Source: Saprospiraceae bacterium (lineage in GTDB: Bacteria; Bacteroidota; Bacteroidia; Chitinophagales; Saprospiraceae). Taken from it: DNA of 26,490 nt. The position numbers were made by a program, and so were the translations under genes. The stretch covers positions 1 through 26,490 of the forward strand of contig JAHDCE010000001.1 of the NCBI GenBank assembly GCA_020630045.1, written 5' to 3'. Of the stretch, positions 18,193-21,028 are shown piece by piece (the first letter of the stretch is position 1; every line of letters begins with the position of its first letter). The notes below the pieces were generated by a model. It worked only from the letters and a program-made list of their open reading frames with translations, was not told where the DNA came from and searched no databases.

Positions 18193-18543
18193 ATGGCAAA
18201 TGACAACAAAACCATCGGCTTAGGCGAAATCAGTACCATTAGAGACATACTCATGGGACAACAAATGTCCGAATACAATGAGCGTTTCAAGGAAATGGAA
18301 GCCAGCCAAGAAAAAAGTAAAAAAGAAGTCGAAGACCAAATCAAGGATCTGGACAAAGCTTTGGATAAGAGACTAAGTACACTAGAAAAAGATATCAATT
18401 CACGTTTTGACAAACTTGAAGAATTGTTGTTGGGTAAAGTATCCGAACTGGAAAACAGGATGGATCATTCAAGTGTTAATGACAAAAAGGCTTTAGGGGC
18501 GATGCTACAGGAAGTTGGTAATCGATTAATGAACGGAAAGTGA
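18193..18543 (+). CDS. Small coiled-coil hypothetical protein, first gene of the GTPase operon
   Basis: The ORF is open from TTG 18136; ATG 18193 is the more plausible start. N-terminal IRDILMGQQMSEYNERF motif, then heptad repeats (VEDQIKDLDKALDKRLSTLEKDINSRFDKLEELL) and C-terminal KKALGAMLQEVGNRL. Confidence 0.8.
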   Translation: MANDNKTIGLGEISTIRDILMGQQMSEYNERFKEMEASQEKSKKEVEDQIKDLDKALDKRLSTLEKDINSRFDKLEELLLGKVSELENRMDHSSVNDKKALGAMLQEVGNRLMNGK

Positions 18544-18547
18544 TTTG

Positions 18548-19414
18548 ATGAGCGACACCGTCGGCAAAGGAAAATCCGATTTCGTCAAAACAGACGCCAA
18601 TGACGAAATCCTGCTTGCGCAACTGAGGCAAATCCTCTTACGCAAAGACAGGGAACAATTGGCTGAACTGGAAGACGAACTCAACGACCCCAATAAATTG
18701 GGGGCGAAGATTTCTCCTATTATAGAATACCACCTGAGTGTTCTCCGACAAAAATTTCCGGCCGAATACAAAAAAGAGGTCGAAAAACTCATCGAACGCC
18801 GACTCAAAGAATCACAAGACGAATTATTGGATGTCATTTACCCGGTCATCGGTAAAATGATCCGTAAGTATGTCAACCTTCAGTTTCAGACATTAAAAGA
18901 TAGCATAGATAATCGGGTCAAAGGTATTTTGTCTCCTAGGGGGATTTGGGGAAGGATTAAGGCCTTGGTCACGGGCGTCAATGAAAGCGAATATGTTTTG
19001 AGCGGGATGCAAGGCCCCATGATTGAAGAAGTATATGTCATTGAAAGGGACTCCGGCTTACTCCAAGCCCACTACTCTAGAAATGCTACAATCGATCGGG
19101 ATGTCGTTGCTGGTATGCTCACAGCCATCAAATCTTTTGTCGAAGATGCGTTCAACAGGGAAAGGGAAGACCTGGAAATGATTGAATATGGTACATATAA
19201 AATATACATTCAATCATTTCATCTCTATTATATTTCCATAGTTATCAGCGGTACATTATCTTCGTCGGAAAGAGACAAGTTATCTGCCAAAATTTTGGAC
19301 TTCGCCGAAGAAGAAATTCAAAGTCGTAGATTTATGCAAAGTCAAGGTGAGGATTCGGTCCAAAAGCTGTCAGATAAGTTGGCCGTATATTTTAAAACAG
19401 AACAAGAAGAATAA
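18548..19414 (+). CDS. Hypothetical protein: helical N-terminal region plus C-terminal longin/roadblock-like domain
   Basis: Starts 4 bp after the upstream stop. Helical region LAQLRQILL...LLDVIYPVIGKMIRKYV. C-terminal beta-beta-alpha-beta-beta-alpha pattern IEEVYVIERDSGLLQAHYS...DRDVVAGMLTAIKSFVEDAF...IEYGTYKIYIQSFHLYYISIVISG. No signal peptide, TM helix or OmpA domain. The fold call is an inference. Confidence 0.75.
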   Translation: MSDTVGKGKSDFVKTDANDEILLAQLRQILLRKDREQLAELEDELNDPNKLGAKISPIIEYHLSVLRQKFPAEYKKEVEKLIERRLKESQDELLDVIYPVIGKMIRKYVNLQFQTLKDSIDNRVKGILSPRGIWGRIKALVTGVNESEYVLSGMQGPMIEEVYVIERDSGLLQAHYSRNATIDRDVVAGMLTAIKSFVEDAFNREREDLEMIEYGTYKIYIQSFHLYYISIVISGTLSSSERDKLSAKILDFAEEEIQSRRFMQSQGEDSVQKLSDKLAVYFKTEQEE

Positions 19415-19436
19415 CCCCGACAAATAGGGAGAGGAT

Positions 19437-19937
19437 ATGATTAATAAAAAAGTCATTTTGACTGGTAACTTCGGTGTAGGAAAAACATCTTTGTTTAACC
19501 GCTTTTTCTACAATCGCTTTAGTGATAAATACTTGACCACTATTGGTGTAAAGGTCGATAAAAAAGTTATTCAAGTCGAAAACAAAGAAATTTCAATCTT
19601 GCTATGGGATATCGCAGGAGAAGTATCACAAGATAAAGTTCCGAATTCTTATTTCTTAGGAGCTTCGGGTATCATCTATGTTTTTGATTTGGCTCGACCT
19701 TTGACATTTAATAACATTGTCAAGGATATCGAACATCTTAAAGAGATGATTCCGGACAGCATCGTGAAAATCGTAGGAAACAAAAAAGACTTACTTAGTG
19801 AATCCGCCTTAGCAGAAACACTAGAGGAACTAGCCTTGGAATGCGACATTATTACCAGCGCCAAAACAGGAGAGAATGTCGAAGATCTCTTTGAAAAATT
19901 GGGGATGGATTTATTAGCACTGGAACAAATGAAATAA
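19437..19937 (+). CDS. Rab/Ras-like small GTPase (stand-alone, 166 aa)
   Basis: G1 GNFGVGKT, G2 YLTTIG, G3 WDIAGE, G4 NKKD, G5 TSAKTG, plus Rab-like segments IGVKV, YFLGA and IIYVFDL. No C-terminal Cys prenylation motif. Confidence 0.93.
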   Translation: MINKKVILTGNFGVGKTSLFNRFFYNRFSDKYLTTIGVKVDKKVIQVENKEISILLWDIAGEVSQDKVPNSYFLGASGIIYVFDLARPLTFNNIVKDIEHLKEMIPDSIVKIVGNKKDLLSESALAETLEELALECDIITSAKTGENVEDLFEKLGMDLLALEQMK

Positions 19938-21028
19938 TGCCCATCGGAATTAAACAAGTCAAACATCAAAAACTCGCCAAATTTTGCCAAGTCATACTTA
20001 TGGATATGGAAGGCAATATGGTCAATAGCTGCGACTCTATCTTCGTTACTGAAGAATTGAAGCAGACATTGGTATACGATTGGTTCCCTTTTTTAGAAAG
20101 TATTTTCCCGGTTCTTCTTTCCCTCAAAAAAGAAGACGGACCTTTACGTTTTTCTAAAGTTGAAGAACCTTCCGAATTTTTACCCGGGTATTATGATTTT
20201 TCGTTTTCTAAGGTTGAATTGGAAGGAGGCCATTTTATCCTTTGGGAAATTTATGATTATACCGCCATTTATGAAGATTTCAAACAATACCAGCAAAAGC
20301 GGAATGAACTTGAAATACAAAGGCAAATCCTAGCGCTTCAAAATAAAAAGCTACAAACCAAAAGCGATGTTCTCAATCGATCCAACCTACGGCTTGGACT
20401 ATATGATGAGAATGAAGAGAAAAAAAAAAGTAAAATACTTTTAACTCCAATGGGAGCCATTGATTGGCTGGCCAAGTCTCTCTCCTCCCTTTCCCAAAAA
20501 AATGGAGCCGAACATCTGGATTCTCTATACGAAGCATCCAAAGATATGGATCTGGTCATTGGGGAGTTGATGCGAAATACCAAACAAGATGCAATGCCTT
20601 CCGATAGGGACGGAGCATTCGATTTTAAACGGGTTGTTTCCGAAGTGATAGAACATCTCCACACTTGGATGAGCCCTAGGACCATTCACTTGGTTATTGA
20701 CGATGTGATTCCTAGATACCTTAAGGGAGATGTCAATTGCTTTAGACAAATATTTACCGGGTTTATTATACATCTCAACCATTTGGCGGATGACGCTTTG
20801 CTCAATTTTTATTTTAGAATTAAGCAACGCTCTCAAAGGATTATCCATATTGAAATTGAAGCGACTTGTGAAGGGGAAATGAATACGGAAATCCGATTGC
20901 AAGAAACGATTCTTCGCCTTTCCGTCCTTAAAAGTATAGTCACCGAGATGGAAGGCGAGATGCTCATCGAAACCGAAAAATCTTTCGCCTCTTCTATTTC
21001 CTGTACACTTCCGTTTTTGATGGAATAA
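19937..21028 (+). CDS. PAS-like domain + degenerate histidine-kinase core (predicted pseudokinase)
   Basis: Its start overlaps the GTPase stop (TAATG). The kinase scaffold is recognisable (ILLTPMGAI, FDFKRVV, DDVIPRYLKGDVNCFRQIF, LSVLKSIVTEMEGEMLIET, CTLPF), but the phospho-His, N-box Asn and G-box glycines are absent. Confidence 0.75.
   Translation: MPIGIKQVKHQKLAKFCQVILMDMEGNMVNSCDSIFVTEELKQTLVYDWFPFLESIFPVLLSLKKEDGPLRFSKVEEPSEFLPGYYDFSFSKVELEGGHFILWEIYDYTAIYEDFKQYQQKRNELEIQRQILALQNKKLQTKSDVLNRSNLRLGLYDENEEKKKSKILLTPMGAIDWLAKSLSSLSQKNGAEHLDSLYEASKDMDLVIGELMRNTKQDAMPSDRDGAFDFKRVVSEVIEHLHTWMSPRTIHLVIDDVIPRYLKGDVNCFRQIFTGFIIHLNHLADDALLNFYFRIKQRSQRIIHIEIEATCEGEMNTEIRLQETILRLSVLKSIVTEMEGEMLIETEKSFASSISCTLPFLME

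Follow-up and report, generated by a model that had tools for sequence, protein, structure and literature searches.

The operon examined here raises the question of whether four adjacent genes, which set a Rab-like small GTPase beside a protein shaped like a histidine kinase, make up a new bacterial signalling system or belong to one already on record. They lie in a stretch of 26,490 nucleotides (the window; contig JAHDCE010000001.1 of assembly GCA_020630045.1) from a Saprospiraceae (Bacteroidota) metagenome-assembled genome (MAG) that is 88.7% complete, and the closest related loci are all in Saprospiraceae MAGs. An earlier note, made from the sequence alone, had taken the genes, here called g1 through g4 (Table 1), for a candidate undescribed system. 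The module was in fact described in 2014 (PMC4316618), and judged by its sequence features the operon is very probably a Saprospiraceae member of the Group 1 Rup module. It represents a variant of that module with soluble components throughout, whose output kinase is either dead or absent.

The Rup family and its Group 1 were defined by Wuichet and Søgaard-Andersen in 2014 (Genome Biol Evol 7:57; PMC4316618), who catalogued by comparative genomics a Group 1 neighbourhood of the order DUFY > DUFX(:OmpA) > Rup > output protein. In their account the two upstream genes encode, respectively, a coiled-coil protein and a conserved domain that has no Pfam model and is often followed by a transmembrane (TM) helix and OmpA, and the output protein is typically a GGDEF/EAL protein or a histidine kinase with an N-terminal invariant Gln that might act in trans; the loss of the GTPase's own G3 Gln was argued to call for a residue supplied in trans (PMC4316618). 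Group 1 was likened to the conservon of actinobacteria, and as of 2014 none of its members had been characterised; Table S2 of that paper lists DUFY > DUFX > Rup without OmpA in six Flavobacteriia and shows only three upstream genes for Bacteroidetes (PMC4316618). In the window the GTPase has no G3 Gln, no Roadblock gene was found, DUFY and DUFX equivalents lie upstream, and the output protein has an N-terminal domain with an invariant Gln. The operon thus shares with Group 1 the gene order, the coiled-coil first protein, the Pfam-less second domain, the GTPase without the G3 Gln and the invariant Gln of the output protein, and the published Flavobacteriia members also have a DUFX without OmpA. 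It differs in that its fourth gene encodes a dead kinase (a bare PAS domain in most sister lineages), whereas the published outputs are live kinases or GGDEF/EAL proteins. In addition, the 2014 paper gave no folds to DUFX and the output N-terminus, which are predicted here to be longin and PAS, respectively, and its listing does not include the sigma-54 activator that occupies the output position in one distant relative (see below). A literature search for a bacterial Rab-like GTPase together with a pseudokinase returned unrelated papers only.

The g3 protein is a single-domain Ras-superfamily GTPase of less than 240 amino acids with G1 to G5 motifs, and its gene is present in a single copy in the genome. 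It matches Pfam Ras at 4.8e-31, and its closest solved relatives are Sec4, Rab11 and Rab1 (about 1e-23). The motifs read G10-N-F12-G-V-G-K16-T17 (G1), T35 (switch I), D58-I-A-G-E62 (G3), N115-K-K-D118 (G4) and S141-A-K (G5), and GxFGVGKT, T35, WDIAGE, NKxD and TSAK are nearly invariant across 82 orthologues: NKxD and SAK each occur in no fewer than 81 of them, and Phe12 and Glu62, at Ras positions 12 and 61, are each kept in 81, as is Gln65. Because the motifs are kept and Ras position 61 is a Glu, g3 should be a Rab-like GTPase that is able to bind GTP and has no catalytic Gln of its own, the G3 Gln being replaced by Glu62. No gene for a Pfam Roadblock protein (PF03259) was found in the operon or in the 88.7%-complete genome, in a search that gave matches in control genomes.

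The two genes ahead of the GTPase correspond to DUFY and DUFX, and g1 lies directly upstream of g2 in almost all related loci. The g1 product is probably a small soluble charged coiled-coil protein; 38% of its residues are charged, it has no TM helix, and the coiled-coil call rests on this composition and on weak matches to coiled-coil-type Pfam families (for example Phasin at 2.8e-5, below the cut-off). The g2 protein has more than 750 homologues and no match in Pfam, NCBIfam or a PDB profile search. In its AlphaFold2 (AF2) model (pLDDT 76) residues 16–152 form long helices and are followed by a longin-like domain, in which DSSP assigns strands (E) and helices (H) as E158-166, E172-177, H184-201, E209-214, E217-223, E227-234, H239-257 and H268-287; this predicted order, beta-beta-alpha-beta-beta-beta-alpha-alpha, is the longin topology. 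Foldseek gave 37 PDB matches at E ≤ 1e-3; those listed are mainly longin or roadblock domains and include the AP sigma subunits, the RagA/C C-terminal domains, Ykt6, LAMTOR, Mon1-Ccz1 and MglB. By VIA the g2 region 154–288 aligns with Sec22b at Z 12.9 (125 of 127 residues), with a Lokiarchaeal longin domain at Z 12.5, with TRAPP subunits at Z 11-12 and with Mon1-Ccz1 at Z 11.6, so by topology and best matches the predicted domain is longin rather than roadblock. The nearest neighbours of g2 in a protein language model are Asgard Roadblock and Fuz_longin_1 clusters, with scores of only 0.79-0.82. Roadblock homology at the sequence level was tried and rejected for both the g2 C-terminus and the g4 N-terminal domain (hhalign P 0.02-0.04, with no order-of-magnitude gain over unrelated control pairs).

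Within the Saprospiraceae lineage g2 carries no TM helix, BON or OmpA tail. Its distant Bacteroidota homologues are 600-738 amino acids long, and of three that were scanned with Pfam two contain OmpA (one of them also BON) and one gave no match. Databases label g2 homologues "cell envelope biogenesis protein OmpA" even when there is no OmpA domain, and g4 homologues "hypothetical". We note that a similar motif opens the conserved part of g1 (I-x-x-I-R-x-I-L, 18229-18264) and of g2 (L-x-Q-L-R-x-I-L-L, 18611-18646); paralogy of g1 with the g2 N-terminus was considered and rejected, as the two share only this 12-column motif (P 0.04, not significant), and the motif might be a common docking helix.

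The g4 protein has no Pfam match at all (no PAS, HisKA or HATPase_c), and its nature emerges from predicted structure and profile comparison. Its model has a pLDDT of 82, and the Foldseek matches are full-length PAS/LOV histidine kinases (for example 4gcz, 4e-13). Residues 15–108 (the core of what is called here the g4 N-terminal domain, or g4N) align by VIA with photoactive yellow protein at Z 11.0 and a root-mean-square deviation of 2.4 Å over 91 residues, and by this predicted structure the region is a PAS domain; a PDB profile search with g4N found nothing. The rest of the protein looks like the core of a histidine kinase, namely its dimerisation and histidine phosphotransfer (DHp) and catalytic and ATP-binding (CA) parts: a profile built from 39 homologues matches the DHp-CA regions of GacS (7z8n, 1e-21), RetS (8e-14), DivL (5.6e-7) and many other kinases, and by VIA residues 225–363 align with the CA domains of ETR1 (Z 16.1), GacS (15.3), RetS (14.5) and DivL (12.7). 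When it is aligned with a canonical kinase, the phospho-acceptor position is occupied by Lys166 (nucleotides 20432-20434), just upstream of the span of the helical hairpin, His279 stands in place of the N-box Asn, the G1 box has been deleted and other residues replace the G2 glycines. Since the DHp-CA fold is kept and the phospho-acceptor His and ATP-binding motifs are lost, the evidence supports a catalytically dead histidine-kinase core, or pseudokinase. All 28 long copies of g4 (from 27 related loci and the window) lack the His, G1 and G2, so the dead state is lineage-wide and not a recent accident. The N-terminal domain is far better conserved than this tail; in 47 diverse g4N sequences Gln120 and Ser55 are the only invariant columns, and Gln119 is kept in at least 90%. 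Two proteins stand out among the relatives: P0185 (392 amino acids) scores above the Pfam HisKA cut-off with an Asn at the position of the phospho-acceptor His and looks like an intermediate between live and dead kinases, and P0197 (390 amino acids) is similar, with no His visible in the corresponding region.

The gene arrangement is conserved far beyond chance, and the module behaves as one conserved unit. By tblastn the four genes follow one another as g1-g2-g3-g4 both in those members of the genus that were searched and in further genera of the family, with identities among relatives of about 72% for g3, 55% for g2, 50% for g1 and 38% for g4, and g1, g2 and g3 are adjacent at all 11 loci from the genus and family. 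When each species was represented by one genome, a scan gave 514 loci with a g2 relative, and in the best 80 of these, which were examined, g1-g2-g3 are adjacent wherever the contig allows. Among 301 evenly sampled Bacteroidota genomes the g2 profile matches 13, and the GTPase profile (E ≤ 1e-20) matches exactly the same 13. A lack of co-occurrence in other genomes had been named in advance as a finding that would count against the operon as a unit; the 13 shared genomes and the conserved order in 80 further loci speak the other way. In three genomes of a single genus (G053, contig L101 4012-5814; G080; G257) DUFY adjoins an OmpA-bearing DUFX of 600 amino acids and Rup lies on another contig; as these are three of the 13, DUFX and Rup co-occur even where they are unlinked.

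The fourth gene is the variable part. In 81 scored loci it encodes a stand-alone N-terminal domain (about 120-185 amino acids) in 44, an N-terminal domain plus dead core (344-397 amino acids, the window included) in 28, and neither in nine. Seven of these nine were checked and are followed by genes for a secreted protein and lipA, with nothing downstream on one contig; in the other two the next gene is an SDR gene on the opposite strand or a canonical kinase without the g4N domain. An exhaustive profile search with g4N found 493 representative clusters in the same two size classes, mostly stand-alone at 110-160 amino acids, and the best 150 of these include a single true hybrid kinase of 653 amino acids. 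L100 and P0293 have g4N fused to true HisKA-HATPase_c-REC-Hpt kinases that keep their H-box, G1 and G2. Beyond the family, the place of the output gene is taken by a canonical kinase followed by a receiver gene, by a 687-amino-acid kinase, or by a PAS / sigma-54 / HTH_8 activator, and a motif resembling QQxNE is found at the place of Gln120 in two proteins of distant loci, the sigma-54 activator and a kinase, as a weak match. Because the relatives' output proteins differ in this way, the conserved partner of Rup would be the PAS-type N-terminal domain, with a modular attachment. We note that the activator, encoded after Rup in another Bacteroidota family (L098 1902-3656, minus strand), is a PAS / sigma-54-interaction / HTH_8 enhancer-binding protein with Q-Q-x-N-E in its first 140 residues, at the place of Gln120. 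A further locus (L014 5355-8684) is an outlier on a very long branch; the G3 of its GTPase reads D-I-A-D-V, with no Glu, and its fourth gene encodes a canonical PAS-type kinase that lacks the Q-Q motif, and a gene for a receiver comes next.

This distribution bears on whether the kinase-like tail of g4 does anything. It could be a remnant in the course of being lost, so that the PAS domain would account for all that the fourth gene does and the tail would pass on no signal; the short form is in the majority, the N-terminal domain is the better conserved part, and by parsimony on a g2+g3 tree the long or short state changes about 12 times, of which at least 4-5 changes are forced by well-supported branches. 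Set against this, all 28 long copies have an unbroken reading frame and a CA fold that is predicted with confidence (pLDDT mostly above 85), and positions such as G264 and G340 are conserved in the tail. Synonymous divergence (dS) is saturated in eight of nine pairs, and the one pair with a usable omega (dN/dS) gives 0.03 for the PAS, 0.02 for the DHp-like and 0.16 for the CA-like part; in the remaining pairs dN for that last part lies at 0.25-0.3, at saturated dS. We consider loss in progress unlikely, if worth keeping in mind. The dead core appears instead to be under purifying selection and not decaying, and the family seems to have lost it repeatedly while keeping it under selection elsewhere.

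Complex prediction offers a view of how the GTPase and g4 may meet. The model contained g3 with GTP, g2 residues 145–288, and g4 residues 1–140 as the scored partner, with a separate alignment for each protein. The ipSAE was 0.85 in three of three runs, and the controls scored 0.00 and 0.00 when the partner was replaced and 0.51 when the GTPase was replaced; the pass mark for ipSAE was reached by 58 of 80 solved complexes and two of 110 mismatched pairs, counts that apply only roughly here given our own alignments and the ligand. On Rup the predicted interface takes in residues 12-13 (the P-loop, including Phe12), 32-42 (switch I), 55-60 and 69-75 (switch II), and on g4N residues 50-59, 70-78 and 112-134, including Ser55, Gln119, Gln120 and Asn123. 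The model thus supports binding of Rup to g4N, with the Gln120 face on the P-loop and both switch regions. It fits the in-trans Gln hypothesis of 2014, short of proof.

A PAS domain may also be an input domain. In that case its ligand would be a small molecule or cofactor, its signal would go to Rup or the kinase-shaped core, and the invariant Gln would have a structural part at the junction of the PAS domain and the following helix. The PAS fold itself suits such a role, as do the many conserved residues outside the predicted interface (S31-C32-D33-S34, G84-Y86-D87-F90 and W103-D107), and a D-Y-T motif at the end of the last g4N strand resembles the PAS-to-coiled-coil junction of PAS kinases. 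The model, by contrast, puts the conserved P51-S55 loop and Gln119, Gln120 and Asn123 on the switch regions of Rup, with controls passed, and the catalytic Gln of the GTPase is lost in 81 of 82 orthologues, which by the argument of the 2014 paper (PMC4316618) calls for a residue in trans. An input role in place of one as GAP or effector is doubtful, if less so than loss of the tail, and it can coexist with the explanation that we favour.

That explanation joins Group 1 Rup membership to the following mechanism. The g1/g2 pair would be a platform that determines either which nucleotide state Rup is in or where it is located, the g2 longin domain acting as a GEF (a factor for guanine nucleotide exchange) or GTPase-activating protein (GAP) platform as longin/roadblock domains do for Rab, Rag and MglA. 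Rup-GTP would dock through its P-loop and both switches on the g4 PAS domain and the helix that follows it, where Gln120 may complete the Rup active site in trans, and g4N would then be both effector and off-switch; TBC RabGAPs and Rap1GAP likewise supply a catalytic residue in trans. In relatives with the PAS domain ahead of a live hybrid kinase, Rup would gate a phosphorelay. In the Saprospiraceae the dead DHp-CA core would most likely signal by protein-protein contact in the manner of RetS and DivL, which act by binding other kinases or regulators (RetS heterodimerises with GacS), and its contact partner is perhaps the neighbouring REC-PAS-HK-REC / Hpt / REC phosphorelay (13686-16531; HK, histidine kinase).

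Taken as a whole we regard this explanation as moderately likely. The step in which g4N serves as GAP and effector is tentative on the present models, a little short of an even call, and the GEF role of g2 and a RetS-like relay are more tentative again. Several points weigh against the explanation. With the GTPase replaced the complex still scored 0.51, so a part of the score is independent of Rup, and the score measures g4N against the rest and gives no verdict on the g2-Rup pair. The C-terminal domain of g2 showed no significant link to 28 Bacteroidota Roadblock proteins (hhalign P = 0.04), and for this reason its homology with GTPase regulators rests on the predicted fold. The dead kinase is dispensable, since 44 of 81 loci have only the PAS domain and nine have no fourth gene. 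The phosphorelay is syntenic with the Rup module only within the same genus (5-8 loci), which makes its functional link to the dead kinase a guess only. As to co-transcription, the sequencing runs that hold the stretch are three DNA runs from one algae-associated metagenome, with no RNA run listed. Finally, no experimental work emerged from a search of later literature for Rup and for the locus tags of members already published.

Comparison with better known systems sets the operon apart from each of them. It resembles the actinobacterial conservon (CvnA-D / Mfp) as a four-gene operon that combines a small GTPase, a roadblock/longin-type partner and a histidine-kinase-type protein, and lacks that system's MglA-family GTPase, Pfam Roadblock partner, membrane-bound active kinase and DUF742 protein. 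With the eukaryotic longin Rab regulators (Mon1-Ccz1, Fuzzy-Inturned, BLOC-3 and TRAPP) it shares a Rab-like GTPase beside a protein of predicted longin fold (Z 10-12), but there is no sequence similarity, and g2 has a single longin domain after a long helical region where those regulators are tri-longin heterodimers. TBC RabGAPs also present an invariant Gln to the face formed by switch regions and P-loop, as is predicted for g4; the Gln of g4 is on a PAS-linked helix rather than in a TBC domain, and the GAP role is a prediction. The pseudokinases RetS (Pseudomonas) and DivL (Caulobacter), which are among the best matches to the g4 tail, likewise have a DHp-CA fold without normal autokinase function, whereas g4 has lost the His, G1 and G2 together and takes its input through a PAS domain for which GTPase binding is predicted.

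The remaining comparison, with MglA-MglB of Myxococcus and Thermus, is the one on which the earlier note had leaned. It proposed a self-contained GTPase switch, with MglA-MglB among its precedents, whose output passes through the dead kinase and which perhaps sets polarity or gliding. Both systems pair a small Ras-superfamily GTPase with a partner whose fold belongs to the roadblock/longin class, and MglB (3t12_C) is a Foldseek match of g2 at 1.6e-3. The domain types are as that note described: the GTPase (Pfam Ras), the pseudokinase (histidine-kinase fold at Z 16 without His, G1 or G2) and the longin-like domain (fold search) all hold, and the coiled coil holds on composition and weak matches. 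The TAATG overlap couples g3 and g4 translationally, and the apparent purifying selection on the dead kinase also suits such a switch. The GTPase, however, is Rup- or Rab-like and not MglA-like, with the DxxG Asp present and Rab proteins as its closest solved relatives, g2 is predicted to have longin topology and does not match Pfam Roadblock, and no Roadblock gene was found in the 88.7%-complete genome. Nor is passage through the dead kinase the core logic of the module, since a majority of relatives (44 of the 72 fourth genes) have the PAS domain without a kinase-like part, nine of 81 loci have no fourth gene, and others have true kinases or a sigma-54 activator; output therefore does not necessarily run through it. 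There is no motility gene in the conserved neighbourhood, and nothing in the analysis supports a role in polarity or gliding. With the module already on record from 2014 as well, we regard such a switch as improbable.

A bolder form of the favoured explanation would make the module a bacterial counterpart of the circuit of Rab, longin GEF and in-trans-Gln GAP, in which DUFX loads Rup, the PAS protein, as a GAP/effector of a new kind, inserts Gln120 into the active site and the dead core heterodimerises with a live kinase. We think this quite unlikely as a complete scheme. If true, it would mean that the Rab-longin partnership predates eukaryotes and exists in bacteria, and it would bear on the proposal that the eukaryotic Rab/Ras/Rho GTPases came from a bacterial Rup-like donor. 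Among prokaryotic proteins it is the Group 1 Rup GTPases that stand closest to eukaryotic Rab/Ras/Rho, and our search found no bench study of them. The module described here is all soluble, with no membrane or cell-wall anchor, and in many species its fourth component is a PAS domain of 130 amino acids; it is for these reasons the easiest form in which to test the in-trans Gln and the longin exchange factor. The family also presents a natural series on one predicted GTPase-binding domain (live hybrid kinase, dead kinase, no kinase) that is useful for asking why pseudokinases are kept.

Table 1. Positions in the window of the Rup operon, its predicted domains and the adjoining features
Feature	Positions	Strand	Basis or remark
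Soluble phosphorelay: REC-PAS-HK-REC hybrid kinase (13686-15725) / Hpt (15737-16096) / single REC (16163-16531), one gene from the operon	13686-16531	+	
DUF7033 / VimE-like sugar deacetylase gene, divergent, conserved neighbour	16533-17855	-	Pfam, NCBIfam, tblastn
Divergent intergenic region, 337 bp, AT-rich, presumed operon promoter region	17856-18192	.	Sequence and composition
g1, DUFY equivalent, 116 aa	18193-18543	+	Open reading frame listing
g2, DUFX equivalent, 288 aa	18548-19414	+	Open reading frame listing
g2 residues 154-288, longin-fold domain	19007-19411	+	Predicted structure
g3, probable Group 1 Rup small GTPase, 166 aa	19437-19937	+	Open reading frame listing
g4, PAS plus dead kinase core, 363 aa	19937-21028	+	Open reading frame listing
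g4 residues 15-108, PAS-fold domain (g4N), the fourth gene's conserved core	19979-20260	+	Predicted structure
g4 residues 109-137, post-PAS helix with Y118-Q119-Q120-K-R-N123-E	20261-20347	+	Q120 codon 20294-20296
g4 residues 171-212, DHp-like helical hairpin	20447-20572	+	Profile match
g4 residues 225-363, CA-like (HATPase_c fold), ATP-binding motifs lost	20609-21028	+	VIA, motif alignment

The divergent deacetylase gene matches Pfam DUF7033 at 1.9e-26 and NCBIfam VimE at 5.9e-46, the latter under its cut-off, and tblastn found it in 70 related loci of several genera. It adjoins the module in 40 of the 40 loci with coordinates, and most of the related-locus matches lie immediately upstream of g1, on the opposite strand. 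This linkage may reflect shared regulation or a connection to envelope sugars, given the OmpA anchor of DUFX in other phyla. The fabH-efp-accB block downstream, seen in 8-11 loci, is a much less conserved neighbour than the deacetylase gene. The module's patchy occurrence in the phylum (13 of 301 genomes) might be taken to indicate a cassette of anti-phage defence or of a mobile element, with a small GTPase in it by chance. The synteny, on the other hand, is stable in several genera, with the deacetylase upstream and fabH-efp-accB downstream, the g2+g3 tree groups genus-level copies together, and there is no integrase or repeat near the module. PADLOC also gave no meaningful match (none for g2 and g4, and coiled-coil or P-loop matches at E 0.002-0.008 for g1 and g3), and such a cassette seems a very remote prospect.

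The physical layout is as the earlier note had it. The open reading frame listing and the junction sequences confirm four same-strand genes with a 4-bp gap between g1 and g2 (TGA-tttg-ATG), 22 nucleotides between the TAA of g2 and the ATG of g3, and a one-base overlap of g3 and g4 in TAATG. The solubility of all four products was also correctly called, as no TM helix or stretch of TM-grade hydrophobicity is present in any of them (Kyte-Doolittle maximum over 19 residues, 1.4), and the AT-rich divergent spacer of roughly 340 bp is indeed there, with a GC content of about 0.34-0.36 where the window has about 0.41. Promoter and terminator scans were at chance level, with only weak sigma-70-like matches in the spacer; its plus strand holds no exact copy of the Bacteroidota -7 box TAnnTTTG, and alignment of the spacer across the genus, from approximate start points, revealed no conserved element. 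Shine-Dalgarno-like elements are unusual in Bacteroidota; none precedes g1, g2 or g4, and g3 alone has one, the purine-rich AGGGAGAGG within 19420-19436, 5-13 nucleotides ahead of its start codon.

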